From positions 124,001 to 188,000 of the forward strand of contig NW_026250428.1 of NCBI RefSeq assembly GCF_024521635.1: 64,000 nt of DNA. The letters are read 5' to 3'. Made by a program: the position numbers and the translations under genes. Source of the stretch: Tricharina praecox. Taxonomy: Eukaryota. Positions 3,618-64,000 of this stretch are shown here, piece after piece. Numbering within the stretch: position 1 is the first letter of the stretch; each line of letters begins with the position of its first letter. The notes below the pieces were generated by a model. It was given only the letters and a program-made list of their open reading frames with translations, had not been told where the DNA came from and searched no databases.

Positions 3618-4148
3618 ATGCAGATCAATTTGTGTATCCTCCCGATCCTCTCCACCATCGCCGCGGTGGTTTCGGCTGCTCCCTCCGGCATCCTTGCACG
3701 CTCCGGTAGCGTCGCGGCCACGTCCAACAACAAGGCCAACGAGTCCACCGCCGAATACCACATGATCGAGATCCCGGGAATCGATGACGCCATTGCGAAC
3801 CCGGAGCACAGACACGAGAACGGGTTACCACACTACACGGTGGTTTGCAAGACCTCCTGGGCGTCTCCCACCTTCGACGAGATCGACAACGTCGTCTTGA
3901 AGGTCTCCAAGAAGGCGAGGGATGATTGTGGCCAGTACAATCATGGGGGGAGCAAGTGCACACGCTTGCAATGGTACAAGGGCGGTGCTCTCTCGCTGTG
4001 TGGCAAGGCGGGATGGACAATCCCTTGCCCCTCGGTTGCGTGGGCAGGCCAGGAGATTAAGAATAGGTGCGGAAACGACGATATGCAGAGGGCTGGTGGC
4101 CATTTGGCCTTTGCGGCTTCTGGTTACATGAGGACTGTGATTCATTAG
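3618..4148 (+). CDS. Small secreted cysteine-rich protein, 176 aa (effector/toxin-like), copy 1
   Basis: Intronless ORF with hydrophobic signal peptide (ILPILSTIAAVVSA-AP), a pro-region and a mature domain with 6 Cys (CKTSWASP...CTRL...SLCG...IPC...C...AGG). TATAAA at ~3510. Paralog at 45459-46046. Confidence 0.85.
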   Translation: MQINLCILPILSTIAAVVSAAPSGILARSGSVAATSNNKANESTAEYHMIEIPGIDDAIANPEHRHENGLPHYTVVCKTSWASPTFDEIDNVVLKVSKKARDDCGQYNHGGSKCTRLQWYKGGALSLCGKAGWTIPCPSVAWAGQEIKNRCGNDDMQRAGGHLAFAASGYMRTVIH

Positions 4149-4401
4149 ATTTATTCTGAACGCTGAGGGTGAATGGCTGGTGGAGGGAGATTCGGAGGCC
4201 AATTGATTCTTCCGCTACATTCCTACCTTTCTATCTCGATGTGACCTGGTGCATACCGTCTGACTGTAGTATTCATTAGATTTATCCTGAACGCTGAGGG
4301 TGAATGGCTGGTGGAGGGAGATTCGGAGGCCAATTGATTCTTCCGCTACATTCCTACCTTTCTATCTCGATGTGACCTGGTGCATGCTGTCTGACTGTAG
4401 T
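4140..4401 (+). repeat. Tandem duplication, 2 x 131 bp, spanning the stop codon and 3' UTR of copy 1
   Basis: Units 4140-4270 and 4271-4401 both begin attcattagattta and end tgactgtagt with only a few mismatches. The paralog at ~45.3-45.45 kb has a single unit. Confidence 0.95.
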
Positions 4402-4679
4402 GTTGCTCCCCCCGTGCTTCGTCACGTTTGCGAAACGAGATTTTATGCCTCCTCGCTCTGATAGTTCTCGTAGCTAAAGTGAATCCAGAGAATGCCATTG
4501 CAATATTGTTAGCCGTGAAGAATTATAGGGAACGATGACCTCAGCTGGATTATTCCGCGCTCCTCTGGAGGTATGTAGACTCGGTAGACGAAAGCGCTCA
4601 ATATATGCCACCTTGAATTGGGTATTATCGTGGTGATATGCGAGATGTGCTGTAACCTACCTAGAGTGAGTACTTTGTA

Positions 4680-9797: not shown

Positions 9798-9976
9798 TGT
9801 GGAGCGTTACATCATGTTAGTAAGCGGTGGACTAGTGGTGGGGGGACGAGGCACGAGGAGCAGGACGGACGACTCTCTTGTTGACCTTTTCTGTACTGAG
9901 ACCAAGATCATCATCAGCAATCAATCGTTCACCCATCATCAACCCCATCGTCACGATTCATCAAACCGGCCGCTCA
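9798..9976 (+). repeat. 5' LTR (179 bp)
   Basis: tgtggagcgttac...ggccgctca; 6 substitutions and 1 indel versus the 3' LTR by eye. Confidence 0.95.
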
Positions 9977-9994
9977 TGGTGCTCTGACTCGGAG
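9977..9994 (+). promoter_or_regulatory. Primer binding site
   Basis: tggtgctctgactcggag immediately follows the LTR. Its reverse complement reads like a tRNA 3' end (CCGAG-TCAGAGC-A-CCA). The tRNA identity was not determined. Confidence 0.75.
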
Positions 9995-10028
9995 TGAATT
10001 AAAACAGCAGAGGACAGTTTACAGTGCC

Positions 10029-10078
10029 GTGTCAACAGAGGAAGAGCAGAGAAAGAGGGAGGAGAGAAATCCAACTCC

Positions 10079-10111
<33 letters not shown>

Positions 10112-12472
10112 AACAACAACAACAACAACAAGAAACCGGTTCGGTAGGAGGCAGGTGAAATTGGAGTCACCGGCCTTCGAAACGATCACTAGGGAACAGT
10201 TCAGGAGGCTGGAACCAAGAGCAGTGTGCAATCCATACGTTCAGGGCTTCGCTGAATTTTACACACTAGGACTGCTAAGCGTACGGTCACGCATACCAAA
10301 CAACGGTCACCCTGAACTTTACCTCGACGAGAAGCATATCACAGCTGTCGAGACAGAAGTGGCAAGTAGCTTTGTCCCCAACGAGAGAACCACTATTTCA
10401 AACCCATCGCAATACAGAAATCAGCTTACGCTGTCGGACAATTCTAGCGGATCAGAAGAGGAAGAAGGGAATTACTGCGAATTACAGCTGGAAGAAGGAA
10501 TCTTTCATATTACTTTCCAATCTCAATCTCCTCCATCCCCTCCATCGGTGATTCCTTCATCTGAATTAGGAAATTCGCTGACTCCCTCCCTACATATACA
10601 GTCTTCTGCCACCACCGATCATACCGAGCACCATCGTCGTCCAACTGGGAATACCATCAGGATCAAGGTTTTCAAAGGCATTAGGGACGGGTCAGAGGTT
10701 CCAGAGGAATTCCTAGACGACATTGAGTTCACCACCGAGCAACTGGAGAGCACCGCACCTACCGACAAGACTCGACTGAGATTCTTCCGCCAGTACCTGG
10801 ACCTGGAGGAGTACGCTTCCAATAGGTGGAACCTGGATGTTCCTCAGGCCGACAAGAAGGATTGTCAGAAGGTTGTCGCAGCCTTTAAGGGCAAGTTTGG
10901 AAATGGGCAACAAGCGGGCCAGAAAACGGGTGAACTACAGAATGGGATAGCCAGCCTTGCCCAGGGTGAATCGGAATCCATAGCGGCGTATGTGCACCGT
11001 GCAAAATTGATCAACAAAAAAAACACCCCAGAGTTCAGCAACCTTTTAGCGATGCGTTTTGTTCGAGGTATGCAGGATGATTTCCATAAAGACAGAGTGG
11101 AACTCTCGCGGGGGGAGGAGAAATATACAGCTACATTTACGCAAGTATTGTCCAAGTAATGGGGTCATACAGGCGACTAGGACAGGCGGACCCATTCAGT
11201 GACAGTAAATCTGCGGGAGGGATATCTGCCACTCCAGACTATCTGGTCCCAGCGAGGGGGATGGCCCCAGCTGCGGCAGCTCAGTTGGAACCCAAACAAC
11301 CTGAGACGAACAGGACAGACGAAGCTCTGGCCAAAATGATATCACTGCTTGAGAAACTTGATAATGCGCAGGATTTTAAGAAGCCGGCCCACACTACTCC
11401 CGGTGGGGACCGTCCGGCGTCACAGGGAAAGCGAAGGATGGGCTATCCATTTGACATAAGTGGTATTCAATGCTGGTTATGTAGCAATTTCGGCCGTTTC
11501 CCAGACAAATGCACAGTGGAAACAATCCTGCCGGTCGAAGAACAACGAGACCTGAAAAGGAAGATTCTGACAGAACTGGCCAAAGCAAAACAACAAGCGA
11601 AAATTGAGGAAGCAGTTAGTCAAGCAACTATGAGCCTGTTGCGTCCGACTGAGGAAAACATGACTACTGTGGATCCAAACTTGAAAGGCTACCAGTTTCA
11701 ACGCGCTGCTGGTGTACAAGTAGTGAGACGCCCAGATATCATGAATGCAGCATCTGCATGTGCTATTCTAGCGAGGATACCAGCTGTTAGGGGAGTGGTG
11801 GAAAATGCGTTGATGGCAGAGAAACGGAAAACTGGAGACGTACCGGACACGCCCGCCCAGCGAAGCTACAACGTCCAGGGCACAGCGATTGAAACACTGC
11901 TTTGCTATGAAGATACAGCGAGCCCGGTGGCATCCACAGAAAACTCCCCTCTTTTACATGATCGATCTCGGGAGAAAGAGGCAGTTCATTATTCGCCACC
12001 GACAGTGGAAGATGCTGCAGAGGGATTATCTGCAGATACAGGAATCCCGTTGATACCTAAGATGACGGACACACTGGGTGATATTTTCACTGACACACAA
12101 TCCCCACTGGAACGGGAAGATTTGGGGGAAACACCGAATGGCCCATCAGCGTCCCAACCACAACACAGACTCGCCAAGCGCGAGGAATACAAGAGGCCAG
12201 AACCGATCCTAATGCTGAGAGGTGATAAACAATACAATTTGGAAGAAGTAATCAACTCGATTCAACCAAATACAACACTTGCACAGCTGTTAGATGCGTC
12301 CTCGGCGCTGCGGCAACAATTATTCAGCCTACTGCGTACAATCATACCTCGAACAAGGAAGCGTCGATTTAATACAGCAAACCTGGTTAATAATCTGGCT
12401 TCACCCCAGACACCCCCGGCCATTAACAAGGGGTATATATATGCAAATCCACCTTCGTCAGCCCGGAGTTAG
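10029..12472 (+). pseudogene. gag: gag-like polyprotein (frameshift at 11159)
   Basis: Retrotransposon gag motif LAQGESESIAAYVHRAK...LAMRFVRGM, a degenerate knuckle CWLCSNFGRFPDKC and a TLAQLLDAS motif; (CAA)n microsatellite at ~10078-10131. Confidence 0.8.
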
Positions 12473-12691
12473 GCATTCAGGATGCTATATCCACCAGCAC
12501 CTCACGGAGAACCTGCACTCTGCGGAGGCCACGGAAGAGAGTAGACCACAAATGCTGCCGACCAGAAAATGATAGAAGAGAAGGGCATCATTAAGGTGGT
12601 GGCAGTGGGGCTACCAACAACAGAGGATCAAACGGGATGGAAAAACGACGAGGCGGTTTCGAAAAAAGAGGAATTTGAAAACCAATAACAA

Positions 12692-14121
12692 TTGTGGAAG
12701 GACTGGTTGAGCGAGCCGGATTACCGACAGATACTGTTATACAAGTTGGGAGGAGAGTTAGTTTGGTCGTGGGAACAGGAGGATATGAGAAGGCAGAAGA
12801 AAAGGAAGATAAAACACCAGTCGACTAGATTTGTATTGGGGCATGGGGGAGGCGAATACCGCACCTTGTTTTACAGAGAGAGAGATGGACGGCTAATCTA
12901 TGTGTTAAAAACAGGGATATCGAGACGACGCTGGCAAACATCCACGACACACATGGTCATTTTAGCACAGGTATCACGGCAGGGAGAGCTTTCGGGCAAT
13001 ATTACTGGCCTTTGAGGACTCACGATATCGCCACTTGGGTGGCGTCTTGCCCGATGTGCCATCGGACACGACCGATCAAACCGTCAGGACATCTCAAGAC
13101 GGTGGTGCAATTCAGTCCCTTCGACATGATTGGGATGAATTACATCGGCCCTATCTCCCCGCCGTGCAAGACGACTGGCAATCGAATCATTCTGGTCATG
13201 GTGGATTACTTCTTGAGATTTTTATTCGCAGGAGGTTTCAAAGAGTGGCCATCGCAAGCGATGACTATAACGACGATCCTGGAGTCGATAGTACCAATAT
13301 TTTGTTGGCCGAGGACGGTGTTTTGCGATAACGGCAGCCACTTTGTGGGCAAAGATTTCCGATCACTTCTCGAAAGCCATGGCGTGACGCTCATACCAGC
13401 ACTTATAACATAACCTTCGTCAGTGGGATTTTCTGAACGCTATGTGCAAATGATCATGGGTAGGATAAGGCTGCAAGCTATGAAGAGGGGAAGCATTGAT
13501 CATTGGGGACTCATGATATCGAATGGCGTAATCGACATCAACACCCGCCAGATCAAAATCCACGGATTCTCGCCAGCGGAAATCCTGTTAAGATTTAACC
13601 CGGCGTCATCGCACTCAACACCTGCAACAGCACGACAGTGGCTAGCAGCGGCGACATCTCTCGAAGATATTATCGGGTGCAATGCCCACCAATTTTGATT
13701 CTATATGATGAAGCGCGACGATGATGGCGAGCGAGCAACGAACCGGCTGTGCGAAACCCAAGACTCCAGAGAATCGAAATACGAACCTCGCTGGTCACCG
13801 CCGAAGGAGGTAGATCTAGTATTGGTTCGCGACAAAGCACTCGACAACCAGAAAGGCAATAAGCTGTTGCACAGATGGTCAGCACCTCGCATTTTGGAGC
13901 ACATAAAACCGAACGGCAACACGGCGTACGTACGGAAAATTCACGACCCACCGCCGGACAAGACAAAGAATGACCACTTTGACGACTTAAAAGTCTTCGT
14001 TAAACGTTCGACTCGAAAAGATTCCGCCGAGATACAACCTGACAGCGTTAGCATCGAGTCTCGAGACACCAGGAAGCGAGGCGGGGCAACGCGCGTATAT
14101 TTTATGGATGGAGGGGGATAA
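12692..14121 (+). pseudogene. Retroviral-type integrase (frameshifts/stops)
   Basis: H-x2-H-G-H-F region near 12945-12963; WVASCPMCH; PFDMIGMNYIGP; MVDYF; VFCDNGSHF; SVGFSERYVQ; C-terminal DLVLVRD...KLLHRWSAP (GPY/F-like). Confidence 0.9.
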
Positions 14122-14593
14122 ACTCCGGGTCGAAGCTTCATTCAGCCCGGGGAGTGAGAGAGAGTGGTTGGAGGAGAAGAACTCATAGAAGAGAGAGAGA
14201 GGAGATACATCGGCCACGAACTACTAACTGTTAACTTATGACCTGTGTGGATGGCTGGCATGTTTGCCAGGTAAGTCTGTCGATTATCCTTTGTTGGACT
14301 GAGATGGGGGGAATGGCTGAGCGGGTCGGATCAGTGATTGTGTGTTGGACTGCCTTGTGTTTTTTTCTTGTTTGTTTGCATTGTCATCTGGTGGTAGTCA
14401 GAGGCGGGTCAAGGAAATCCAGAGCGAAAGGGAGGCGGACCTGATGTTGATGATGGTTTAGAGGGGACAGTGAACTTTGTCGGCGGAGGATGAGCTTTTC
14501 AGCGGGGGGTGAACTTTGTCGGCGGCTGGCGAGCTTTTCGACGGAGAGTGATCACTTCTGCATGGTGGTAGAAATTCATCTGTCTCGGGGTCA

Positions 14594-14771
14594 TGTGGAG
14601 CGTTACATCATGTTAGTAAGTGGTGGACTAGTGGTGGGAGACGAGGCACGAGGAGCGGGACGGACGACTCTCTTGTTTACCTTTTCTGTACTGAGACCAA
14701 GATCATCATCAGCAATCAATCGTTCACCCATCATCAACCCCATCATCACGATTCATCAAACAGGCCGCTCA
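14594..14771 (+). repeat. 3' LTR (178 bp)
   Basis: Direct repeat of 9798-9976, followed by TSD CCGT. Confidence 0.95.
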
Positions 14772-16179: not shown

Positions 16180-18316
16180 GCCTGTAAGGGTGCAGCAAAG
16201 ATCCCAGTTCCCGAGTAGTAGATCTGAAGAGTAGAAGGTGGCCTACGTGAAGGTCGTGGATCACGAGAAAGCTGTTGCGAAGACTAAAGTTCGGCCGGAT
16301 CATGAAAATTGGAAGATTCATGCCATTCGTTCCTACCCATGGGATTCAGATACCTAACCACTCAGCGGGGTAGTTGGAACTTGCCACAACAGTCAATCGA
16401 CACAGTTGCAGTGACAGGGCACAAGATCCGCAGCCGCGGCTCCGGCGAGTGATATCTGTGAACCGCCATCCGGCCTCAAACATCGTAACTCATGACTCAT
16501 GACTAGATCGTTGATTTTTAAGACTTCTTTCGCGGTGCTCATTCCTACTAGGGTACCCACGTTATGATCTATCATAAGCCACTTGTGTAGACTGTAGGCA
16601 CGATAGGATTGTTGGTTGGGGCAGCTGGGCTGATGCGCACCGACTACCGGACGAATTGAGGTAATTTGTAAACGATGTGCTCAATCCTAGGTATTCGACA
16701 TTCCCATCATCTGCCCCTTAGCTTGCAAGACTGCGGCCTGTCGGCACGAGTATGCCCTCCGGTGCCCAAGGTCTCCTCCGAAGCTAAGGTCCATATTGAC
16801 GGCCACTATTTGGGAGGGAACCTGGGGTCACCTGTGGCAGTCGCAGTCTGTAGGATCTGGGTGACACGGGGACTAGGCCCGAGACAAACTGCGCTAGGTC
16901 CGAGAAATGTCACCCACGACAACCGACGCCCGAGCTGCCTGCATCCACGCACCATCCACGCACCATCCACAGTGTATACCACCCACCTCACACCAACCAC
17001 AACCCCCCCCCCCCGGCTCGCCCTCATCGACGATGGAAGCCGGCAATCCCTCCCCCTCCTCTACGAGAGAACCCGGAGATCCCTCTCCTTCCTTGACGAT
17101 GGAACCCGGCGATCTCTCCCCCTCCTACCACTTCCCAGCGGAGGTACTTTTCAATATCATCGATCATCTTCCAAGCATCAGCGAGTACCTATCTTTGCGC
17201 AACGTCTCTCGGGCCACACGAGCCGTATGCAACATGGTGCCTCTCACCACGCTGATTCGGTTGCTGCTCCGGTTTGTGGTGAGCTTGGAAGTAGCGCAAA
17301 CGATAGGTGCCGTGTACAGACCGCTGTGCTTTTTGAAACGTCGGATGAGGGAAGCGGGGTTTGCGACCGGAAGTTGGACTCAACGAAGGCTGTATCGGCA
17401 GGTTAGGCGGGTGAAAGCTCTCGCGTTGGATATGTATTAAGCTGCGGGGGATGGTGTTTGAGGATTGGCTCCCTAGTGAGAGTTCGATGTGGTGGATCTT
17501 CACGCTTTTCGTGAGGTGTCCGGATGTAGTCTTTGACTACGGGATGCGTTTAGTTACATTTGGGCTGGAAATTGGCGACCGCTTGGATTGAGCGATAGAA
17601 AGAGCTCTGGATAGCCCTGTTGTATGTGGGGATTGTTAGCTTTTCTTTTCTCTGTTTCTGCGCGGCTCATGAGATACGGTGAATGCTGAGATGCTATCAG
17701 AGGAGGAATTCGATACCGGCTGGTGGTGGGATAATCACACAATATCACCTGCTCCTGCTCGACACTTTTTTTTTACCGTAAACTTCGTGTTCATATTCCC
17801 TCTTTATGCGGTCCGAGGAATCATACTTGAGCGAGGTTCGTCTCCACGACCACGGCATCCACGATCACGACACCCACGAGTAGTTTGAATCCGCCGACCT
17901 GCATGCTGCAGCTCCCACGAGACCCCATAGTCCGGAAGTGTCGACTTGCAGAAATGTCTGACTATAAACCCCCCTCGCCCCGCTCTCCTCATTTCTTCTC
18001 CTCTTCTCTTCCCCTATGCCCTCTCCCATTAAACCCCGCTGCCCTCATTCCACCTGTTTGCGATTCTTCACCTGCCTAACTATCACCACTTCCCGCTGAC
18101 AACATGGGTTTCGCTTTCACCGTGTAGCTACTCTTGAAGTCCGACCGGGAGTCGCACATCGTTCATCCTGCTACAACGTTCAAAGTGAAACCGCTATTCA
18201 TCGTTGGAAGAAGTGACGAAGTCCACCCTTAAAACCAGCACTATTGGTACGTACATTGTTCATAGAGGTGGAGAGTATATAAGGTATAGATCGCCCGGCC
18301 CTCTCCCCCGGTAGAA
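16180..18316. repeat. Right arm of the inverted duplication
   Basis: Reverse-complement colinearity with 5385-7600 (see left arm). Confidence 0.85.
16907..17440 (+). CDS. F-box-like protein family A, copy 2
   Basis: YHFPAEVLFNIIDHLPSISEYLSLRNVSRATRAVC; shares PLCFLKRRM.E.GFATGS.T.RRLYR with copy 1. Confidence 0.7.
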   Translation: MSPTTTDARAACIHAPSTHHPQCIPPTSHQPQPPPPGSPSSTMEAGNPSPSSTREPGDPSPSLTMEPGDLSPSYHFPAEVLFNIIDHLPSISEYLSLRNVSRATRAVCNMVPLTTLIRLLLRFVVSLEVAQTIGAVYRPLCFLKRRMREAGFATGSWTQRRLYRQVRRVKALALDMY

Positions 18317-36741: not shown

Positions 36742-37618
36742 TGAGCGACGCACGCAGCTTGCGTACCTGGACCAGCCTCTTGGCTATGACCCGGCCCGAA
36801 TCGCTGCAGTGCTCGACATAGTCCCACGGAAGAGGCCAGTGGGCAGCCTGAGGCAAGTTGTGGTAGGAGATGAAATGCATCATCTCCGTAAGAATTGGCT
36901 TCAAGTCGACGCTGTTGTTGATCTGCTCGCAGAATTCGCAGATCCGCAAGTCGACGTCGCGATTGTCCTCGGGGGTGACGACCAGTGCAGGGTACACCAG
37001 TAAGGTGAGCACCTCGATCTGGTCTACTTGCTAGGTTATTTTAGGTCTAGCTTATTGTTTTTTTATTGCCTGGCCTTCAAATTTCCATGATGCCCGACGA
37101 ATTGTCGTCCTATGGATCGTAGCCGAACACCATCCGAATGGCGCCGGCTCCTTCGGATATATTGCGAGCGGTATGCAATATCTGGCGCCAGAAGGCCACC
37201 TTGTCGCCGGACTCTGCCAAGCTGGTGTTAACTGCGGTTCAATTCTGGGACCTCACAAATAGCGGTCTTACTAGCGGCCATCGTTCTGAATCGATCCCAC
37301 ACATCGTCAGTGTGTGGCAGCGCCCTCGGTACAGGGTACCGCCTGATGAGCTCCATCCTTAATTCACCGCCTGTGAATTCATCATCTTTGATTAGCCGCA
37401 GCCAGCTGGCAGCAATCATGACATCAGCGACATACCTGCGGCAAGATCCAACCAATTGTTCGGAAAGCTGCAGCTAGTTGGCCGGGAATTGACAGCGAAG
37501 AAGCAATGAGTGTAGATGAGATCGACGACCAGCAGCGTCTCATCGCTCTTGGGGGCACGAATGCCCTCCTCCGCCCTGCGGAGGATTTTTTGTGGGAGGA
37601 TAGATTTGGCGGGAACAT
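36728..37618 (-). pseudogene. F-box family B paralog lacking the F-box, with a 60 bp disruptive insertion
   Basis: 36763-37450 is nearly colinear with 51021-51695 including the second intron. Insertion 37024-37083 breaks the frame, and the 5' end differs. Confidence 0.8.
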
Positions 37619-43900: not shown

Positions 43901-45065
43901 GGCATCGGCTGGTTAGAATTACCAGTACATAACTGTATGGGGTACGCCATAAAGCAAGGCTGTTAAACATCTCAACTTCTCACTCGTGGCAATAAAAACT
44001 ATTACTCTGTGACACTAAAACGTTTTTACTGTCACGGTCCTGCTCACGGACGCAGTCGCGGAAGGCTTTGACGAAGGCGTCAGTAGACGGTGAAGGCCGA
44101 TGGTCGAACATTTCGGCCTCATCCTCAGCGATGGTACTCAGCAGCTGCTCAGGTTGAGGGCTAGGAAAAGTACTGGCAGTGACTATGAAGTGTCAAAAAG
44201 AAGAAGATGTATCGCCTTATAATGTGCTCTTATTCCACAGTCTCTCCGGAACGGAATCTGGAGGTCCTCTATATATACAGATTATGTCGATCCCAAACAT
44301 CATTATATAGCAGACCGTTGATATGCGGAATACTCGGCTGGCCGAAGACGATGCTCGCTGGTATATCATCGGTCAGCATTCTTGCGGTTTTCTCAGCATT
44401 CTTGCCGTTCTCTCAACATTTCTGCCGTCGTCATATACTATACACAGCGGACTCCGTCCAAGTATGATATGTAATAGTTGCCGGGCTGCAGCAGACGGTC
44501 GTCTTTCCGCACTTCTGTACCACATGTGTCTCGCGGGAAGACGACACTACCGAAGATCAAATTGACCATGGCGTAGAGGTGGGCGTTTGCTACTCCGTTC
44601 GTGAGGATAAGTGCCTTCTCCTCGTGACAGTGGCGTTACCCATGATCAAACGTTGTATGCGCGAAACGTTACGCCACCTACAAAGGTACCTATAAGGGTG
44701 GCGTCGACGTACGTGCACGTGCACGTGCTCCTCAGCCTTTGAGCCGGGATTGAGCGCTTCTGGGGTACTGCACTGCTGGTCGTTCTGGTGGCGGGGGTTG
44801 TTGGCGCGTAGAGAATTCGGCCGGGAGAGGGGGAGCGGCAGTACAAGAAGGAGAACAAGGACACGAACGAGGACACGAACGAGAACGAGGAACAAAACTA
44901 GAACGAGACGGAGAACGAGGAGGAGAACGAAGACGAGGAGAAGGACGAAAATGAGAAGGAGAGGGAGGAGGCGGCAGCCCGGTGTTGTCGTCAAGATTCT
45001 AGAATGACACATTTTCTTTGGTTGCAGCTTTCGTCATGTTATTTCTTCTTTTGCTCTGTAGATGA

Positions 45066-46281
45066 TAGCACATCTCGGAAATCACCACGATAATACCAAA
45101 TTCAAGGTCGCACAGTATCTAGAGCTTTTTCGTTTTGCGAATATACTTACCTCTAAAGGAGGGTGGAATAATTCAGCTCGGTTCATCGTTCCCTATACGT
45201 CTTCACGGCTAACAACATTGCAATGGTATTCTCTGGATTCACTTCAGCTACGAGAACTATCAGAGCGAGGAGGCATAAAATCTCGTTTCGCAAACGTGAC
45301 GAAGCACGGGGGGAGCAACACTACAGTCAGACAGCATGCACCAGGTCACATCGAGATAGAAAGGTAGGAATGTAGCGGAAGAATCAATTGGCTTCTGAAT
45401 CTCTCTCTACTAGCCATTCACCCTCAGCGTTCAGAGTAAATCTAATGAAGCACAGTCCTCAACGGAGTAGAATCCTTTGGGACAAGCGGCCACCAGCCCT
45501 CTGCCTGTCGTCATTTGCGCACCTATTCCGAATCTCCTGGGCGGCCCACGCAACACTCGAGCAAGGGATTTCCCATTCTGGCCAGCCACACAGCGAGATA
45601 TCACCACCTTGGTACGATTGCAAGCGTGGGCACTTGCTTTCCACATAATTGGTCTGGTAACAATCATGCTCCCCCATATCGAGGACCCTTGAGATGAGGT
45701 GGGCGATCTCGTCGTAGGTGGGAGATGCCCAGGTGGTCTCGCAAACCAGCGTGGAAATATTTTCGTCTGCCGAATTGTAATAGTTGAAGGTGCTGTTGGA
45801 TGATGGGTCTGTGTAGACGACCGGCGCAGGCTTCTGTTTGTGCTCCGGGTTCGTAATGGCGTCGTCGATGCCCGGGATCTCGAAGTGCGGGAACTCGATC
45901 ATGTGGCATTTACCGGCGGGCTCGTTGGCCTTGTTGTTGGACGTGGTGGAGACGCTACCGGAGCGTGGAAGGATGCCGGATGGAGCAGCCGAAACCACCG
46001 CGGCGATGGTGCAGAGGATCGGGAGGATACGCAAATGGATCTGCATATTGATTCTTGTGGTGTCTAAAGGTTGTCTTTGGTGATGTGTAATGTTTGAGAA
46101 GGATGGTCGTTGGTGATGTGTAATGTTCGAGAAGGAGGGAAGGATTAGATGGTGGATGATGAATGGGTTGTGGATGGAAGCTTTTATAAGGGGAGCCGGC
46201 AAACCGACGGTAGCTACTTGACTGCATTCAAAGGAGTGATCCAGGGGTGATGATAGAATGTACGTGAGCGTTATCGGTTGT
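45066..46281 (-). repeat. Inverted copy of the secreted-protein locus 3478-4652
   Basis: Reverse-complement match over promoter (cgataacgctcacgtacattct), CDS and 3' flank. Confidence 0.92.
45459..46046 (-). CDS. Small secreted cysteine-rich protein, 195 aa, copy 2
   Basis: MQIHLRILPILCTIAAVVSAAP signal peptide and the same six-Cys spacing; start placed at 46046 by homology with copy 1. Confidence 0.85.
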   Translation of the reverse strand: MQIHLRILPILCTIAAVVSAAPSGILPRSGSVSTTSNNKANEPAGKCHMIEFPHFEIPGIDDAITNPEHKQKPAPVVYTDPSSNSTFNYYNSADENISTLVCETTWASPTYDEIAHLISRVLDMGEHDCYQTNYVESKCPRLQSYQGGDISLCGWPEWEIPCSSVAWAAQEIRNRCANDDRQRAGGRLSQRILLR

Positions 46282-50995: not shown

Positions 50996-51889
50996 TCAGA
51001 GCTCGAAATCATACATGCGTATCTGGACCAGCCTCTTGACTATGGCCCGGCCCGAATCGCGGCAGTGCTCGACATAGTCCCACGGAAGAGGCCAGTGGGC
51101 AGCCTGAGGCAAGTTGTGGTAGGAGATGAAATACATCATCTCCGTAAGAATTGGCTTCAAGTCGACGCTGTTGTTGATCTGCTCGAAGAATTCGCAGATC
51201 CGCAAGTCGATGTCGCGATGGTCCTCGGGGGTGACAACTAGTGCGAGGTACACTAGTAAGGTGAGCACCTCGTTCTGGTGCTCCATGATGCTCGACGAAT
51301 TGTCGTCCTCTGGATCGTAGCCGGAGACCATCCGAATGGCGCCGGCTCCTTCGGATATATTGCGCGCGGTATCCAAAATCTGGCGCCAGAAGGCCACCTT
51401 GTCGCCGGACTCTGCCAAGATGGTGTTAACTGCGGTTCAATTCTGGGACGTGACACATAGCGGTCTTACTAGCGGCCATCGCTCGGAATCGATCCCACAC
51501 ATCGTCAGTGTGTGGCAGCGGCCTCGGCAGAGGGTACCGCCTGACGAGCTCCATCCTCAACCCACCGCCTGTGAATTCATCATCTTTGATTAGTCGCAGC
51601 CAGCAATCATGATGAAATGAAGTGACGTACCACGGTCGGGGTTTACGATAAGCCAGAGCAGATGCGGCAGTTTCCACGGGTGCGGCAAGATCCAGCGAGT
51701 TCGCTGGCGATTAATGGCGAAGACGCTATGCGTGTGGATGAGGTCGACGACCAAACGCGCCTCATCCGCTTTCCAGACATTCAGAAGGGTACGGCAACTC
51801 ATCCCCAGGTTGATTGAATCCTCAAGGGTTGTGACCTGCGCGAAGATGCCAGACAACATCTCCGGCGAGAGGGAAAGGATGTTCGCCAT
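50996..51889 (-). CDS. F-box protein family B, intact, 3 exons
   Basis: MANILSLSPEMLSGIFAQVTTLEDSINLGMSCRTLLNVW is an F-box. Introns 51584-51630 (gtacgt..ctaat..aag) and 51412-51469 (gtaaga..ttaac..cag) splice in frame to the terminal exon ending MYDFEL*. Confidence 0.85.
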
Positions 51890-57067: not shown

Positions 57068-58200
57068 TCACCGACAGTTCCGACACGAACTAGAAGGCGG
57101 CGTTGTTGGCGTGGCTGGGCCAGATACCACAAACAAAAGCCAACTGCGACCGCCAGGGCAGCCTCGACGACCATCGTCGACACGCCACTCCTCTTCGGCT
57201 GCATGACCGCCATCCGCTCCGCTAGAATCCTCTAGTGGACCTCCTCACGGTCAATCGAAGCATCCCGGTGGAGGGCGGTGGCCATGCCGCCGGCCGAGGG
57301 CATGTCAACGAGACGGTCGATGGCTGCGAGCTCTCTCTCGACCCGGAGCGCCTCCCAGTAACTCCACTTCACCGCCTCCTGCGCTAGCACCTAACGCTCC
57401 ACCGCCATGCGCGCCTGCTTCTTACACTCGAGCCGGAGCACCTCCTGTCGACTCCGCTCCGCCTCCTGCTCCGCCAGCACCTGACGCTCCAACGCCAGGC
57501 GTGCGTGCTTCTGGCGGATGTGCTCCGCCACAAGGGCCTTCGTATGCTTCTCGGCCTTCATCGCACGCTCTTGCTTAGCCTCCCGGAGTATCTGCGCCTC
57601 GGTAAGTTTCTCCGCCTCCTTCTCCTTCTCCCTCGCCAACCGCTTCTCCCTCTCGTCCTCTGGGCCAAGCCCCTCACGGACTCGGGCGGCGCGGTAGTGC
57701 TACTCGATGCAGCTCTTCCGGCGGGCTTCCTCCACACGAAACTCCCACTGCTCGAGAGTTTCGTTCTCCTTGCGCTCCGGCAAGGCGGTGAGCGGCTTGA
57801 CCTCTATCCTCGCTCCCTTGTGAAGTGCTGCCATCGCCGCCCTTTGCGCCCTTCGAGAACGGCGCTTAGTGGCGGGGGGTGCACTCACCGGTTGAGTGTG
57901 GACGAGAGTTTCGGCGGCGGCTGCGGCTCTGGTGGCTGCGGACGCATCCTCTGCGAGGCGTGCGATATCACGCTCGAGCTAGAGAGCCTCCCGGCATCTC
58001 CGCTCTGGCTCTTGCTGAACCAGCAACTCCGCATTTGCTGGTTCAGTAGTGGTGGAACCGGCGGAAACCAGCGAGACCGGGGCGGGGGAACAGCTTTCGT
58101 GTGTTAGCGTACTCCAGATTTGATGGAAAAACAGCTACATACCTTGGGCCGTCCTTGTATTCGGCTTCTGGGCCGTCTTCGTGTGGTGTGGTGCACCCAT
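57068..58200 (-). pseudogene. Coiled-coil protein gene with four in-frame TAG stops
   Basis: ATG at 58200, then intron gtatgt...gctaac...aag, a probable frameshift, and one long E/R/A-rich frame interrupted by TAG at ~57978, 57700, 57391 and ~57232; hydrophobic tail MVVEAALAVAVGLLFVVS. Confidence 0.6.
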
Positions 58201-58919
58201 CCTGAACAGCTTTCGGAAAGTTTTGTGGAAGGGAAAAAACAAATCTGATTGTTGTAGTCAGAGAATGCTGAAGGTGGTCAGAGTGGGTTGTGGTGTAGTG
58301 AAGAGGGAAGGAAGAAAAGGGAAGGAAGGAGAGGGAAGCAAGAAGGAAAGCAGCCGGTAGGTGGTGGACCCGCTAGTCTGCGAAATCTAGGGCTTCGATG
58401 TGTGCGGTGCGATCGGGTGATTCCCTATATTTGGCCTTCTCGCGCACTAGTGTCTGTGGAGTGAAGCTGCCTGCAGAGCTACTAACCAAAACAGCTGTTC
58501 GATCCCACCAACCTCTTACCGCCCTTCCTCTTGTTAACTGAGTTGTAGCGTGCTCCCTCTTACTAATCAAGAAACATGATTACCTACGCAAGTTGCCGGC
58601 TGGGTGTTTACGCTTTGCCGCGATGTTTGGGGTGGGTACTTTTTGACGGCTTTCACCTAGTATATTCCTACAGTCATCTAGTGGACCGCAGGGCTGGGTG
58701 TTCTTCCCGGGCATGCTTTCCACAGGACTAAGCCGTTCAATCATACAACAACGTTTTCGAGAAACGCACTACCTTCGCGACCAAAACACGATCTACAGCT
58801 GCGCCTCGTCCCACTCGATCTTCTTCGACTATCCTCCATAACCACGTCCCTCAACACGACCTCATCTACCGTACCGACCAGACTACACCACAACTCCCAC
58901 GACGATCATATCGCACACA

Positions 58920-59287
58920 ATGTCCAGTCCCGAGTCTATGCCTACCGACATCTCTGACATCCTCTCGGATTTGAACGCCCAGAACATACACATCGGCGAC
59001 GACGTCTTTGATTCCCCGATGTGCTCGCCTTGATCGAGCGAGTCGTGGATTACGAACTGGACCTAAAGGCAATCATCCGCGACGCGGTCCAGGTCGTTGG
59101 CGACATCGACCAGGCGTGCGAGTTGGTCGCCACCCTGCTGTCGATGATCAAGACCCTCGACGAACAGCGCAAAGTTTTGAAGGCTCTTGAAGAGCGCTGT
59201 GCCTTGCAACGCAATACTCTCAAGGAGGCTGTCGAGATGGCAGAACTGAACGATGTGCTGCCCAAGTCCGGAGAAAATGGAAATTGA
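58920..59287 (+). pseudogene. Small helical protein, one frameshift, divergent from the coiled-coil gene
   Basis: MSSPESMPTDISDILSDL... shifts frame near 59015 into LALIERVVDYELDLKAIIRDAV...; pyrimidine-rich 5' leader. Confidence 0.45.
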
Positions 59288-61174
59288 TCGCCCGGCGTGC
59301 TGTTACGGAGAAAGTGGACAAGATGCAGGATGATATGGTTTGAAGGATACGGCAGGGGAAGCGAGCTCTGAGAGGGTACCCATTGCTGTTACAGATTACC
59401 TAGTTATTTCTCATCTTGTTTCTCCTGTTTGTTTTTTCTTTGGTGGATGTTCACTTTCTCCTCTGTCAGTGGTGACTGGTATTTTTTCACACAAGGATTT
59501 TTAGACGGTCAAGAGTTTTACTGAGCCTTCCGAGTCCCCAAAGTCCCTTTCCTTATGTCTTTTAATTGTCTCGCGGGCTAACTGACCTTGCCCTTCTTTC
59601 CTTTCTCGTAAGAACCTCCGTCCGAGGGGAAATGTTAAATATAGACGTCCGGTAGGTTCGCAGGATACCTCGAGCACCATATGCAATGGAGGCACCGGAT
59701 TGCATACTCATGCCAGCACGCCACGGTCCTCGTCATGGTCCTCAGTGATCACCTAGAAACCTCGCACTTGTACAGAGAGTACGTACCCATTTCTGCGCTG
59801 ACTAGAATAACTTCCAAGTCTTTCAATCTTCATACTCCCGCTTTGTACACCTTCCATAGCCGGCTCTGGCGGTGCGGTTGTGACAGATTTTTGAACTAGT
59901 TTGCACTGTTGGCAACTCGGCTTTGCGGTCGTTCATCCCTCGAGTTCTCGCCTTTTCATTCTTTGCTCCTTTACCGCGGGTTAAATGCCGGTAAATCGTG
60001 TACCCAGTTCCAACGAATGACTGGGTACTCAGATACCTTGGGCCTCGGGCTTTCTACCGACCATTATCTTTTTCTTGAGCATGTGCACAATCGTCCGAAA
60101 TGCACGAGTGACATATCATGCTTGTCTGTAACCAATGGTTCCGATTGACTGAAGCACAATCACTAACCAGCACTCGCTTTTGAAGAATCAGGTTTCCAGG
60201 AAATTGTGTCGACTGGAAGAATCGCTCAGTGCTGAGTCGCTTCGAACGTATAGCATCCTCTCGTGTCTAAAATCCACTTCTGCACCTCTGGGATGTTGTT
60301 CCTCAGTTCAGCTCCCCATATGTGCGTCTACATGTTCAAATTGTCCTGCGGAGACGTCATCCGCACCATGAAAAGAAGCCAATTAGTGTCCTGACAGAAG
60401 GCTAAAAGATATATTGAGGAATCACGCAAGCGCATTACTACACTAGTCATTGAAGCCGATGATGTCGATCGCTACTGAACAGCGACCACTGCCCTGGTTG
60501 GAAGATATTACGTACGCCGAAGGCTGTGGGCGTTGATTGAACCGCCTTCAATAGGGGCCAGCTTATGTAGCTCTAGGTCTACTATACATGCTAATATACC
60601 CTTTTTTATAAAAAAAACTGCCGTCGGTGACAAATGGCGAGTGATATTATGTGAACAACTGTAACATCCATCGCGTGGCTGTGGGGCGTCCGTGTTCCGC
60701 GGGCTGGAAGTAAACCTACGGCAGAAGGTCTTGGTACAAACAATAGGCTGTCGGATATGTGGACACTTAGTTAACCACCTCTAGTCTCCTTATTAACATT
60801 TGGTTATAAGAACTTCACATTATGGAGTGTGCCCATCGTCACATTGTGGCTCCAAAAAGACGCTCGTACGGTACAGAGTCGACACGATGGCGTCTGTTTG
60901 TGAGGTTCTGTTATACTCATCGACTCATAGTGGTTATATGTAGAATTCCTATGACGGCGTACATTCCCCTCCCCATCCTTGTAAAAGTGCAATCTCTGTC
61001 TCCCTGTACCAACCAGCAACCAAATCTCCCACCCCCCCTCTTCAACCCGTCTACTCTACTGTACTTCGCATTCACCACCATCACCCCTCTCATCACCCTG
61101 CCTGTTCTCTACCAACATCATTCCTTTTCACTCACATTCACACACTACTTTTCTCTCCAACCATCTACTCACAC

Positions 61175-61318
61175 GACCGGACAGAATAATCCCCCCCCTG
61201 CACATTTTGATTACCCGAGATCAGATCTGTTGATAAATCCTATGGCAGAGCCACACGCCGCCAGAGATCTAATCTCAGCTAATCAAAATGTGCAGGGGGG
61301 TGATTATTCCTTCCGGCC
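61175..61318. mobile_element. Small foldback/MITE-like element with ~54 bp imperfect TIRs
   Basis: gaataatcccccccctgcacattttgatta..gagat.agatct vs agatct.atctc..taatcaaaatgtgcaggggggtgattattc; no TSD found. Confidence 0.7.
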
Positions 61319-61890
61319 ATGTTAGTAGAACGCCCGTAACTTCTGCCAGCCCCTCTCCTCCCAATTAGCCAGTTCCGCAGCACCTCATTTTTCAACTACC
61401 TCCTCATACATCCACCTACGGCTCATCTCATTGCACATTCTATCCACCCCATCAGCAAGTCTATCGTTTAACCGGAGAACTTTCCATCCTCATATTTTCC
61501 AAATGGTGTCAGCCACGCAAAGGTTTACTGATACACTGTGTGAAGCGACGGATCCACCCCTTTGAAACATATGGATACAGTCTGTGTTATATTGCCTAGC
61601 CACATCTGGAGGTCGCTTTGTAAGTTCCGAAATCGTATGCATGTTGTTGGAGAAGAAGAACATCCTGTCTCTCTTACGGTCTCAAGTGACATTTTCCATC
61701 ACAAATCTCGCCCTTTGAACCGTCTCCTTTCTTGCATCCAAAAAATGTCCTTTTGCGGACTGAGAGTCCTCAAAATCATCCCACACACTCAATCTTATTC
61801 ATATCAGGCGAGAGACAGGGGACCGGTTACAACGATGGATGTTGTTTTCTTCGTAACTCCATTTGGCGTCAGCGGACATCATGCTTGATG

Positions 61891-62139
61891 CTACTGAGTG
61901 CAGAGGCGCATTGTCCCCGACTCCTCGACAATCCATACTTCTTTGCCTGTATTTGCTTTTGGCATTCGGATAACATAAGTGATGAGGCGGGGATAAAGTT
62001 GTTCCGTGCCGAGTACTATCCCCCGTGCAGCCACAAACATGAGGAACGTGAGGATGGTTTGCTTCCAAGCATGGTAATTTTCGCTGTTTAGGAGCTCAAC
62101 GGAACCATGCTTGCACGTGAACATGTTGGTTGAGGCCAT
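61891..62139 (-). mobile_element. Ty1/copia gag N-terminal fragment
   Basis: VELLNSENYHAWKQTILTFL...GIVLG fits the copia gag L-x-x-x-N-Y-x-x-W motif; later ANTGKEVW. Confidence 0.75.
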
Positions 62140-62182
62140 TGCGAGTGGGTATCGGTTGTTCGAAGCGAGAAAATATATTCGC

Positions 62183-62520
62183 AGTCGACTCCTCCTTTGC
62201 TTCGGTCCCCCCGCTCACTCTTCTTTACGTTGAAGATCCACTCTGGTGGAGGTCGGCGGCGCCGTGACTGACCTGGAGCACGAGGTTCGGTGGGGATCTG
62301 TTCGTAGATCTCCTGCATCGTACGATATTCCGCCGTGCCGGGAATGAGGGCGTTCCGTCGTTGCTCTGCAACCCGTTCCTTCTCCTCCTGCCTCTCATTC
62401 TCAATAATCAACATCTTGCTTTGAAGCTCTTCCTTCGATTCCTTCTCCCAAAGAAAAGATGGACCATTCATCCCATATGCCAGCGCGCCTCAGAAGATAA
62501 TCCGGGCGGAACCCTTTTCT
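62183..62520 (-). mobile_element. Tc1/mariner (IS630-like) transposase fragment
   Basis: IIF*GALAYGMNGPSFLWEKES (cf. MFWG...GP) and RGDRSKGGVD. Confidence 0.7.
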
Positions 62521-62524
62521 TCTT

Positions 62525-63470
62525 GGGACGGGCATGTGGGCTCAATGTGTCCCCACGATTGGCAGATCTCACACTGCGTGTCTGGCTTGACGTCCCGGTA
62601 CTCCTCACTCTTGATCAGTCTGCCACAGAGCCGCAGTCCCTTCCTAGCCGCAGCACACTCTCCAGGTTTCTTCCCCATGCGACCATAATCACCGTGCCTG
62701 TTTTCTCCCGTCCTCTTTCTTCATCTCTGCTCTTAGAATTTCCTCTGAGCCAAGCCAGCGGAGTCTCTGCAAGATTTTCAGCCCAAACTGGGCATTTTAT
62801 GCCTCCAGTGCCTTGTGTAGGGTGTCCAGTCCGTCATCGGTCAAGAAGATGTCCAGCGGGATGCGGTAGAGCTTGACTTTCATCCGTTGCTCGTCAGCCC
62901 TGACCTCTGCGATGCCTGGATCCACTGTGCGTGCTGCCTGTAGAATCTGGTCCTGATAGCGCAGGAGAATCACGGCATCCGCTCTATTCGCCGCCATTGT
63001 GGTTCCCTCGGCTGTTGACATTCACCTGGCCTATCCTTACGTGACGGGGTGCCCCCGCCTCGTGCCGGGCGCTGCCTCGGCCCCTTGCTATAGCCTCCGC
63101 TGCCAGTCCCCCATCTTCTGGTCGAGCATTGCGGCTAGGCTCTCACTGAGCTGGCCTGCAATGAGTTGCCTCTCGGCACTTGCCGCTCAAGCTAGGCCCC
63201 AGCCTTCATGAGGGCTCCCATGACCGACTGGAGAAGTACTTGCCTTCGCGATTGCTGGCTGGGGGACGGTTCGCGTAGCGTCGCGCGATGATGCTGTGGC
63301 TCTGTCGGGCCGCCAATGGTTTTTTCTGCTGGGTAGCTGGGTGGTGCTGGCGAGGCGTTGCCATGGCCCCTGTGCAAGCGCCTTGGTGCTGCAAGGCGCA
63401 TGAGCTGGCGCCCGGGAGTTCCTCTTCCGGGGGAAATTTGGTTTCCGACGCGGGCTGGCTGTTGTTCAGG
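62525..63470 (-). mobile_element. LINE (Tad-like) ORF1 fragment
   Basis: ILQAARTVDPGI...KVKLYRIPL...LRWL...GLRLCGR...PDTQCEICQSWGHIEPTC (CX2CX4HX4C knuckle). Confidence 0.7.
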
Positions 63471-63474
63471 GTCC

Positions 63475-64000
63475 GCAGCAGGTACGAGCACAGTGAGTGA
63501 AAATATGTATCCTCGCAGACACGGAAGCAGACATTCATGTCCATGATCTACTGAAGGAGGATGTCCTTGAAGATGTCGATGTTGAAGATTATCCGTGGCT
63601 TCGACTGGTCAAACGCGCTCTCGATCGTCTGCTGCGTCTTGGTTCCCCGTTCGGTAGCAATGTTCCCGTCTGGACCGATACGGTACTTGGAACGCAGATG
63701 TGCAATTTCGTTTTTCGTAGTCGTCATTGCGGAGGTGGCAGCAGTTAATGGATTCGGGCCTGCTCGTAAATACCTCAGTCAAGGCCTATGAGTGGTGTTA
63801 GCGATGGAAAGCCACTTACATCGCTAGTATTGCCATCGGGGAATCCCCCTCACCGTACACTCCTTCTCATTCTCCGGCAGCCAGATATGGCTTGAGCGAA
63901 CCTTCGTCTTCGCTTTGAAAACCGCCGGGATCGAGTCGGTGTCTGCCGACGCGGCCTGTGAACTATTTTCCGGTTCCAGAAGCTGATGGATATACTGTGG
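63475..64000 (-). mobile_element. hAT transposase N-terminal fragment (degenerate BED finger and following helical domain), runs off the window
   Basis: RSSHIW...PRWQY*RC(intron)PNP...AHLRSKYRI is an eroded W-x-C-x2-C...H-L-x3-H; then QQTIESAF and FNIDIFKDILLQ*IMDMNVCFRVCEDTYFHSLCSYL. Confidence 0.75.

Follow-up and report, generated by a model that had tools for sequence, protein, structure and literature searches.

The minus-strand mosaic of transposable element (TE) fragments at the end of the 64,000-nt stretch analysed in the present study (hereafter the window) is probably the decayed wreckage of TEs, present as a single copy in a fungus-like genome, joined by deletion or break repair, and passively transcribed. 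A preliminary description had reported internal coding pieces of four unrelated TE classes fused end to end, and this is partly confirmed: the pieces are real, broken and on the minus strand, and they belong to three kinds of TE gene, perhaps to a fourth. Read along the minus strand, the 5' piece of a hAT-like transposase is followed by 457 nt of GC-rich sequence, an internal piece of a LINE-like gene and, last, a Tc1/mariner transposase reduced to its C-terminal half (Table 1). The mosaic codes for nothing; all of the main pieces carry stops or frameshifts, and the longest minus-strand open frame within the chain comprises 138 codons. The practical upshot is routine annotation, in which the patch is masked and no genes are called.

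Herein, we propose that separate TE copies, nested or side by side, would have been joined by illegitimate deletion or break repair with the loss of their termini, that an insert of ~173 nt resembling a copia gag would have been placed later inside the Tc1 piece, and that a MITE of 158 nt would have landed downstream. We infer this order of events, the mechanism of deletion and the lack of function. Several observations favour the wreckage interpretation. First, a nested insert splits the Tc1 frame. Second, every piece is broken. Third, the MITE reflects ordinary transposition nearby. Fourth, the chain occurs once in the window and the runs compared. These properties are shared with transcribed TE graveyards, in which broken TE classes lie side by side with nesting, stops and frameshifts, in single copy and under a long non-coding transcript. 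However, the main fragments here have no termini and share one strand, and the LINE-like and Tc1 pieces meet directly, within 12 nt and in frame; these differences from the graveyards also count against wreckage. Four sequencing runs were compared with the window: X1 and X2, presumed to be RNA and derived from two studies, and X3 and X4, which are DNA, the latter as metagenome contigs.

Table 1. Positions of the features of the mosaic and its surroundings in the window
Feature	Positions	Strand	Remarks
hAT-like transposase pseudogene, 5' fragment	63479..64000	-	runs off the window end; relatives P0003, P0004 and P0005
Spliceosomal intron, 60 nt, within the hAT-like piece	63760..63819	-	GTAAGT ... 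CTAAC ... CAG
Spacer, hAT-like to LINE-like piece	63022..63478		GC-rich (GC 0.64)
CCHC gag-like protein of LINE ORF1 type, internal fragment	62526..63021	-	~aa 73-235 of the 324-aa P0039
Junction zone, LINE-like to Tc1/mariner	62523..62534	-	without filler; both sides in one frame
Tc1/mariner transposase fragment, part A	62169..62534	-	~aa 206-323 of 410-462-aa relatives
Insert of ~173 nt splitting the Tc1 piece	61996..62168	-	alignment to P0009 broken between aa 108 (to 62169) and aa 109 (from 61995)
Tc1/mariner transposase fragment, part B	61600..61995	-	reaches ~aa 232/241 of P0009
MITE-like foldback, 158 nt	61168..61325		TA flanks at 61166-61167 and 61326-61327
Apparently transcribed span	61046..64000	-	one 6.1-kb contig each in X1 and X2, with 0 and 3 differing letters

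Identity and decay of the pieces

The hAT-like piece was identified through three relatives, P0003, P0004 and P0005, which were the 3 of 72 candidates passing E<=0.01. Positions 63715-63479 of the minus strand correspond to residues 5-83 of these proteins, with tblastn identities of 77, 66 and 62% and E values of 8e-36 to 9e-29, and the similarity stops sharply at 63479, which is residue 83 of the relatives. Further likeness to them was sought in the spacer, the tail and 58000-61045, and none was found (best z 2.0, with 3 of 100 shuffles equal or better; z<=1.1 in the other frames). The decay marks of this piece are two in-frame TAG codons, at 63826-63824 and 63550-63548. The fragment reported in the preliminary description is thus borne out by its matches to the relatives, and its name comes from the blocks SFDMWSG, VDNASNN and CFGHVLNL of P0004, which are taken here to be those of a hAT transposase and which have no library match. 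Conserved blocks and a C-terminal dimerisation domain (PF05699) are features of hAT transposases (PMC4316626). No hAT family was reported in P0003-P0005 by Pfam, PDB or NCBIfam; the precomputed families of these proteins are PF27041 and PF27039, which were not reported in our own Pfam scan. Their AlphaFold pLDDT is 39.4. Pfam gave no match to the BED zinc finger (PF02892) at E<=10 in the two exon translations, with X placed at the stops. By eye, the BED finger of the piece looks degenerate. A related hAT-like copy, record 21 of X3, lies on 63505-63897.

The 457 nt that follow show that the hAT-like and LINE-like pieces do not adjoin, contrary to the earlier statement that no spacers separate the fragments. 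Within this stretch there was no likeness to the N-terminus of P0039 (z<=1.6) or to the hAT relatives, and no Pfam family was found in any of the three minus frames.

Of the reported LINE ORF1, a CCHC gag-like fragment was confirmed. Positions 63021-62692 match aa 73-173 of P0039 with an E value of 9e-13 in a single pairwise comparison, and positions 62645-62541 match aa 197-231 with 49% identity; the Smith-Waterman z scores against this protein are 20.5 and 18.4, and none of 200 shuffles scored as well. A knuckle of the form CX2CX4HX4C occupies 62573-62532 of the piece, three Cys/His knuckles are present in P0039, and the Atlas gave zf-CCHC (55% of cluster members) and PRE_C2HC (44%) for this protein, as leads only. 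One stop (TAA at 62799-62797) and one frameshift, between 62716 and 62645, mark its decay. Type I ORF1 proteins carry at least one RRM immediately upstream of the CCHC zinc knuckle or knuckles (PMC4120745), and the AlphaFold model of P0039 (pLDDT 40.0) is too low in confidence to show an RRM. Pfam gave no family, and no reverse transcriptase or endonuclease (ORF2) family was found in the open reading frames of 55.5-64 kb.

The Tc1/mariner claim was likewise upheld, for a piece longer than had been seen before. The C-terminal ~55% of the transposase extends from 62534 to ~61600, and the 5' half of the gene is absent. In a phmmer search, 33 of the 36 matches fell on query residues 63-184 (best E 3.9e-13), and tblastn extended the match into 61998-61918 and 61921-61625. 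DDE_3 exceeded the Pfam cut-off in five of the eight Tc1-side relatives scanned, HTH_Tnp_Tc3_2 is also present in Tc1 relatives, and P0008 matched an IS630-family transposase model with an E value of 5e-15, under the cut-off of that model. This piece has accumulated three stops (TGA at 62492-62490 in part A and two in-frame stops in part B) and at least one frameshift, near 61920, in addition to the 173-nt insert. Neither a TIR nor a TA-flanked Tc1 terminus was recognised in 61330-61600, and the minus frames of this tail contained no Pfam TE family.

Within the insert, a leader of 29 nt precedes an ATG at 62139, and ~47 codons show a resemblance to the beginning of a copia-type gag. Its insertion is visible in a related Tc1 copy (record 19 of X3), in which 90 letters correspond to 261 of the window and ~171 nt are missing at the insert site. 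The preliminary description had placed a copia gag after the Tc1 piece. Instead, the gag-like stretch is nested inside that piece, and its match to copia stays under the threshold: Retrotran_gag_3 was matched in Pfam with E values of 0.056 and 0.014 and 13.7-15.6 bits against a cut-off of 24.1, and no Retrotran_gag_3 or DUF4219 gag motif above the family threshold was found in the insert. The Atlas scores of 0.93 and 0.92 for this stretch are leads only, and a word-index homologue search gave 10 candidates, none of which was scored. No direct repeats of LTR size surround the insert. A putative target-site duplication, GAACAAC, was dismissed, as 6903 of 20000 random placements were equal or better. 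The open reading frame formerly called copia (61891-62214) is a chimera of the small insert and Tc1 sequence, the latter making up its C-terminal half, which illustrates how nested pieces may be taken for one when a sequence is read by eye.

No other feature was recognised by family searches: the Rfam and tRNA scans returned no families and no tRNA, and 89 open reading frames of 45-99 aa in 55.5-61.9 kb contained no TE family in Pfam. RIP was ruled out as the cause of the decay, since TpA/ApT (0.38-0.69) and (CpA+TpG)/(ApC+GpT) (1.1-1.9) are not RIP-like across the pieces.

Junctions, termini and orientation

The description of the pieces as fused end to end holds for a single contact. The LINE-like and Tc1 pieces form the sole direct junction of the chain, which lies within 12 nt and joins the interiors of two genes; the knuckle matches end at query aa 63-66 and the Tc1 matches start at aa 63-73. 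The hAT-like and LINE-like pieces lie apart, and the copia-like insert is nested within Tc1. A word-index homologue search with the translation of the LINE knuckle and the Tc1 piece gave 359 candidates, of which none was scored.

No termini (TIR, LTR or LINE 3' end) were found for the hAT-like, LINE-like or Tc1 pieces inside the window, and the reported lack of termini therefore stands for these three main pieces within the window. It does not extend to the MITE, the inverted arms of which measure ~61-65 nt and are 86% complementary, and which is flanked by TA duplications. Empty sites are present in X3 and X4, with joints 61165->61326 and 61164->61326, and the MITE is an insertion separate from the Tc1 piece, with its own TA/TA flanks. 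Among the origins suggested earlier, heavy deletion in a nested pile gives the best fit to the nested piece, the pseudogenic state of the pieces, the junction between gene interiors and the single copy. Several deletions must nevertheless be assumed beyond simple nesting, since no termini of the main elements were found. The chance that four pieces share one strand is 1 in 8, as had been stated, and the common orientation is therefore not significant. Taken together, however, the one strand and the in-frame junction are more naturally predicted by a one-step origin, either templated or mediated by reverse transcriptase.

In the templated form of such an origin, a polymerase would have switched templates among dispersed TE copies during repair, with the short stretches as filler DNA; an example would be a gap left by the excision of a hAT-like or Tc1 element, followed by abortive gap repair. 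We consider this origin unlikely but worth weighing, because the LINE-like and Tc1 pieces join gene interiors without termini and without filler within 12 nt, the length of the insert (173 nt) would suit templated insertion, and different internal deletions occur in related Tc1 copies of X3 (joints 61439->61626, 61663->61922 and 61998->62277). However, neither a hAT nor a Tc1 terminus was found beside the chain within the window, the direct repeat bounding the insert can be put down to chance (6903/20000), and a common orientation is not predicted. Ds-like derivatives with filler DNA are attributed to templated gap repair. Ds-like elements with filler DNA that sometimes matches gene fragments have been described (PMC3260210). 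Like the hAT-like piece, these derivatives have lost most of the transposase gene and carry foreign sequence after the remainder; in contrast, they retain both 11-bp TIRs and 8-bp duplications (PMC3260210), whereas here the 3' end of the hAT element was not found and its 5' end lies beyond the window.

The form mediated by reverse transcriptase is a chimeric retrocopy, in which the reverse transcriptase of a LINE would have moved from one RNA template to another in the course of target-primed reverse transcription, so that the cDNAs of several TE transcripts were fused. It agrees with the shared orientation, with pieces that are coding parts of transcripts and with the direct junction of the LINE-like and Tc1 pieces, and it has a precedent in a fungus: the MINE and tripartite chimeras of Magnaporthe arise by template switching of LINE reverse transcriptase, and many of them are transcribed (PMC2104539). 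As in the mosaic, sequences from different transcripts adjoin one another directly and point the same way. However, the 3'-most part of these chimeras is a 5'-truncated LINE, and duplications of 10-20 bp flank them (PMC2104539). In the mosaic, Tc1 sequence comes last at the 3' side, the LINE-like piece is internal to ORF1 and occupies the middle of the chain, the intron of the hAT-like piece is still present in the DNA, and the 457-nt stretch interrupts the chain, and a retrocopy is accordingly very improbable. Of these origins, we retain deletion or break repair among separate TE copies as the probable one.

Transcription and copy number

The chain is apparently contained in a spliced minus-strand RNA 6.1 kb or more in length. 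The contigs of X1 and X2 that cover it end at 61050 or 61046 and extend ~3.2 kb past the window end, and the intron joint 63758->63819 ('cut +1') is present in one contig each of X1 and X2 and in none of X3 or X4. This RNA would start beyond the window, keep using the intron of the hAT-like gene itself and end near 61046-61050. The intron reads canonically on the minus strand, and the RNA is therefore sense to the fragments. We infer that the transcription is passive read-through rather than a dedicated function; as the locus appears to be transcribed in both X1 and X2, which come from separate studies, the absence of a function is assumed.

A dedicated function had been suggested in the preliminary description, namely that the chain is a TE-memory locus producing silencing RNA by analogy with piRNA clusters. 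In this form, the sense RNA and the hairpin of the 158-nt MITE would give rise to small RNAs silencing the hAT, LINE and Tc1 families, either through an RNA-dependent RNA polymerase or with the hairpin as a substrate of Dicer, as a fungal counterpart of a piRNA cluster. The chain is apparently transcribed from one strand, as this function would require: X1 and X2, from two studies, each have one contig that extends over the whole chain with splicing in the minus-strand sense. Moreover, this RNA would contain the MITE hairpin, which is nearly perfect and strong (-112.9 kcal/mol, z -14.6), and the chain is kept with ~1% differences in the metagenome contigs of X4. Uni-strand piRNA clusters of animals, such as flamenco, contain dozens to hundreds of TE fragments antisense to the transcript. 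The mosaic resembles them in having TE fragments of one orientation in a long single-strand transcript, but it has only three or four fragments and its transcript is sense to all of them, which counts against the piRNA-cluster analogy. In addition, the X4 contigs differ from the window at similar rates in the chain (16 of 1497 letters) and in the flank (36 of 2352, one flank piece entering the transcribed span), and no extra constraint is therefore seen. Fungi are not known to have a piRNA pathway, and the organism here looks fungal; nothing relevant to a comparable fungal TE-memory locus was found in the literature searched. The TE-memory function, like a retrocopy, is very improbable. As the patch seems to be transcribed into one spliced RNA of TE sense that includes a strong MITE hairpin, the silencing-RNA idea is cheap to test. 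If small RNAs from the locus did control the matching families, this would bear on the evolution of genome defence outside animals, and we know of no earlier example of a cluster-like TE trap from a fungus.

The mosaic is single-copy in the window and the runs compared. No DNA match to 60000-64000 was found elsewhere in the window, and the chain did not recur there or in any of the four runs. The depth of X3 over 62616-63317 equals that of one contig (8.52) and is 10.3 in the next bin, and extra contigs of X3, all of them diverged, were observed over the Tc1 and hAT parts. The serial capture by a carrier element that had also been suggested is not supported by these results. In that scenario, a Helitron-like, Pack-type or other capturing element would have taken up the fragments one after another and would move them as a unit; co-oriented gene fragments without termini of their own are typical of captured cargo. 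However, neither carrier termini nor a second copy of the chain was recognised in the window, and over the LINE-like piece, as over most of the spacer, the DNA runs have no extra contigs. We consider a carrier the least probable of the origins discussed, and wreckage of separate TE copies remains the preferred explanation.

The chain is common to the DNA sources. Record 20 of X3 spans 62294-63765 with one difference, and record 29 of X4 spans the junction of the hAT-like piece and the spacer with two differences in 346. The metagenome contigs gave no match to an exact 26-mer from near the window end, and when they were searched with P0001, 111 stretches were matched and none was confirmed. Near-identical cover by X1 and X2 is absent over ~59000-61045, and these runs have only short diverged pieces at 57616-57660, 58755-58938 and 59876-59914, while X3 and X4 cover 30 and 29 of the 30 bins, respectively.

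Composition of the mosaic

The preliminary description had presented four transposon pieces fused on the minus strand near the end of the window, and this observation was partly confirmed. Three pieces, hAT-like, LINE-like and Tc1/mariner, were supported and share one strand, whereas the copia signal was weak and lay nested within the Tc1 piece, and a stretch of other sequence interrupts the chain.

Positions in the window of the features of the mosaic and its tail
Feature	Position	Strand	Basis or character
hAT-like piece	64000-63479	minus	protein matches and related DNA copy
Intron	60 nt within hAT-like piece	minus	GTAAGT ... CTAAC ... CAG
Stretch between hAT-like and LINE-like pieces	63478-63022		457 nt; GC 0.64
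LINE ORF1-like piece	63021-62526	minus	alignment to P0039
Tc1/mariner piece	62534 to about 61600	minus	phmmer, tblastn
Insert	62168-61996	minus, inside Tc1 piece	split of P0009 alignment
MITE-like foldback	61168-61325		158 nt; arms about 61-65 nt, 86% complementary

First, positions 63715-63479 of the hAT-like piece matched residues 5-83 of three proteins (77, 66 and 62% identity; E 8e-36, 3e-29 and 9e-29; tblastn), the only relatives at E<=0.01 among 72 candidates. A diverged DNA copy in X3, one of two soil metagenome runs of one study (X3, X4), was placed on 63505-63897 (record 21), which places the upstream exon and the intron in one repeated family. The reading frame contains TAG codons at 63826-63824 and 63550-63548. 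Beyond 63479 the likeness to the relatives is lost: nothing in the next 457 nt, the tail or 58000-61045 resembled the remainder of these proteins (best frame z 2.0, a score reached or exceeded in 3 of 100 shuffles; others z<=1.1). Pfam, PDB and NCBIfam returned no hAT family name for the three relatives; we take them to be hAT-like from sequence blocks in one of them (P0004) and from precomputed Pfam accessions carried by the relatives.

Second, LINE-like likeness starts by 63021. Positions 63021-62692 aligned to residues 73-173 of a 324-residue relative, P0039 (E 9e-13, a single pairwise comparison), and 62645-62541, past a frameshift, to its residues 197-231 with 49% identity (Smith-Waterman z 20.5 and 18.4, equalled by 0 of 200 shuffles). 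Three knuckle matches were obtained with phmmer against the whole library (E 9.7e-6, 4.8e-5 and 2.2e-4); the piece itself holds a CX2CX4HX4C knuckle, and two further Cys/His knuckles follow in P0039. An RRM with CCHC knuckles behind it is the type I ORF1 architecture found in the I, Jockey, R1 and Tad1 clades (PMC4120745). Because of the knuckle and the P0039 alignment, yet with an AlphaFold model of P0039 too low in confidence to show an RRM (pLDDT 40), no RT found by domain search of nearby ORFs and Atlas offering only leads (zf-CCHC and PRE_C2HC clusters), we call the piece gag-like, probably LINE ORF1.

The preceding 457 nt, which separate the hAT-like from the LINE-like piece, lack a Pfam match in all minus frames and resemble neither the N-terminus of P0039 (z<=1.6) nor the hAT relatives; thus, contrary to the earlier suggestion, the chain is not seamless. 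At the LINE-like/Tc1 boundary, knuckle hits stop at query residues 63-66 and Tc1 hits start at 63-73, placing the junction within 62534-62523, with no filler and one frame on both sides. The reported lack of recognisable termini held for the three main pieces within the window, although the hAT 5' end would fall outside it and the downstream MITE has TA on either side.

Third, 33 of 36 phmmer hits of the Tc1 piece fell on query residues 63-184 (best E 3.9e-13). Among eight Tc1-side hits scanned in Pfam, DDE_3 was above the cut-off in five and HTH_Tnp_Tc3_2 below it in seven, and in transposases of 410-462 aa the piece matched aa ~206-323. The match resumes beyond the supposed copia gag (61998-61918 and 61921-61625), up to residue 232 of the 241 of a Tc1-side relative, P0009, so that the piece represents the C-terminal ~55% of a Tc1/mariner gene. 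It is broken by three in-frame stops, one of them a TGA at 62492-62490, and by a frameshift near 61920. Related copies in X3 carry differing internal deletions (joints 61439->61626, 61663->61922 and 61998->62277).

In the P0009 alignment, the match breaks off after residue 108 (62169) and is taken up again with residue 109 at 61995, and a related Tc1 copy (X3 record 19) has 90 letters at this site against 261 in the window; therefore, about 171-173 nt were inserted into Tc1 sequence. In the insert, a 29-nt leader precedes an ATG, from which about 47 codons resemble a copia-type gag start. The copia signal is sub-threshold (Retrotran_gag_3 13.7-15.6 bits, cut-off 24.1; E 0.056-0.014; Atlas leads 0.93 and 0.92), and the homologue search found no homologue of this stretch. 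Since the Tc1 match resumes on its far side, the ORF at 61891-62214, previously read as a copia gag following Tc1, is by its sequence a chimera whose C-terminal half is Tc1. A short direct repeat at the insert ends did not reach significance, since 6903 of 20000 random placements scored as well.

Probable transcription, copy number and the MITE

Six runs contain the stretch, and four were aligned to the window. The DNA of the region is represented in X3 and X4 with few differences; both main junctions are bridged by X3 record 20 (62294-63765, 1 difference), and X4 record 29 covers 63376-63721. X1 and X2, runs from two other studies whose "RNA?" label is a guess, each gave one contig (6082 and 6103 letters; 0 and 3 differences) on 61050/61046-63758 and 63819-64000, which reaches some 3.2 kb beyond the window. 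Both omit 60 nt with GT..AG ends on the minus strand, and shifting the cut by one base gives the intron motifs in the table. This joint is in no X3 or X4 contig. We take the skip as splicing, and hence as evidence for RNA made from the minus strand and sense to every fragment, although such a contig is not proof of one single molecule. The ends of the two contigs at 61050 and 61046 lie no more than 5 nt apart, at a place where a DNA run continues, a weak hint of a 3' end.

Positions 60000-64000 have no DNA similarity to the rest of the window. In X3, 62616-63317 is covered at the depth of a single contig (8.52), with 10.3 in the following bin, and additional diverged contigs lie over the Tc1, MITE and hAT parts. 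These families are therefore repeated, but the chain itself was met only once. X4 differences were similar in rate within the chain (16 in 1497 letters) and in the flanks (36 in 2352; manual count, one flank piece, 60956-61286, entering the transcribed span), which gives no indication of special constraint.

Downstream of the Tc1 piece, Pfam assigned no family to 61600-61330 in the minus frames. The adjoining foldback is a textbook Tc1/mariner-type MITE insertion, and X3 and X4 contigs join 61165 to 61326 without it, so that the insertion is polymorphic or recent. In one metagenome contig, MITE-like sequence is fused to Tc1 coding sequence of the opposite orientation (61233 to 61782), which hints that the MITE derived from the Tc1 family of the mosaic. 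A related copy is contained in X2 record 12, a contig of 2660 letters.

Origin of the mosaic

The simplest account is transposon wreckage, a known kind of object. First, hAT-like, LINE-like and Tc1/mariner copies would have lain nested or adjacent. Deletions or break repair would then have removed the element ends and joined the interiors, and the small insert and the MITE would have come later. The patch would be transcribed passively, still using the intron of the hAT-like gene. The difficulties with wreckage are that it calls for several deletions, that not one terminus survives, that all oriented pieces share the strand (a chance of 1 in 8) and that one of the junctions is exact, with a single frame running across it. 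These points make one-step templated repair a serious, if rather unlikely, rival for the origin of the chain, with a parallel in the Ds-like elements with filler DNA described in PMC3260210. Fusion of cDNAs by RT template switching, known in Magnaporthe (PMC2104539), fits poorly, because the LINE-like part is internal, in mid-chain, and an intron is still present in the hAT-like piece.

The mosaic had also been proposed as a silencing locus, a source of small RNA. The spliced minus-strand contigs now favour the transcription that this requires, but a polarity sense to the fragments is the wrong one for the analogy with piRNA clusters. As RNA, the MITE is predicted to form a near-perfect hairpin (-112.9 kcal/mol, z -14.6), which would be the one obvious Dicer-type substrate. 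Only a demonstration of small RNAs together with silencing would make the mosaic much more significant.

Other repeats in the window

An LTR-flanked element lies on the plus strand, opposite to the chain, at 9798-14771, with 179-nt direct repeats of 96% identity (9798-9976 and 14594-14771), Integrase_H2C2 and rve at 12829-13410 and an unusually A-rich strand (AT skew 0.19-0.23); its two long ORFs (9900-11156 and 11090-12469) had no Pfam family. A direct repeat made up of two adjoining blocks and about 590-650 nt long (36760-37406 and 51016-51604; 93-95% identical, 14.2 kb apart) could represent either the LTRs of one large element or a repeat present as two solo copies. Inverted duplicated blocks of 76-90% identity pair 5410-6687 with 16804-18260 and 3502-4660 with 45058-46196, and F-box ORFs in the former pair suggest a duplicated gene family rather than transposons. 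Gene-like ORFs in the window carry F-box, RhoGAP and carboxylesterase domains; together with the signals of the 60-nt intron and the occurrence of the locus in soil metagenome runs, these suggest a eukaryotic, fungus-like source. Finally, 58755-58938 and 57616-57660 match deep X1/X2 contigs (depth 220-1447) at only about 85-90% likeness; the matches probably stem from highly expressed paralogous genes or from repeats at other places in the genome.
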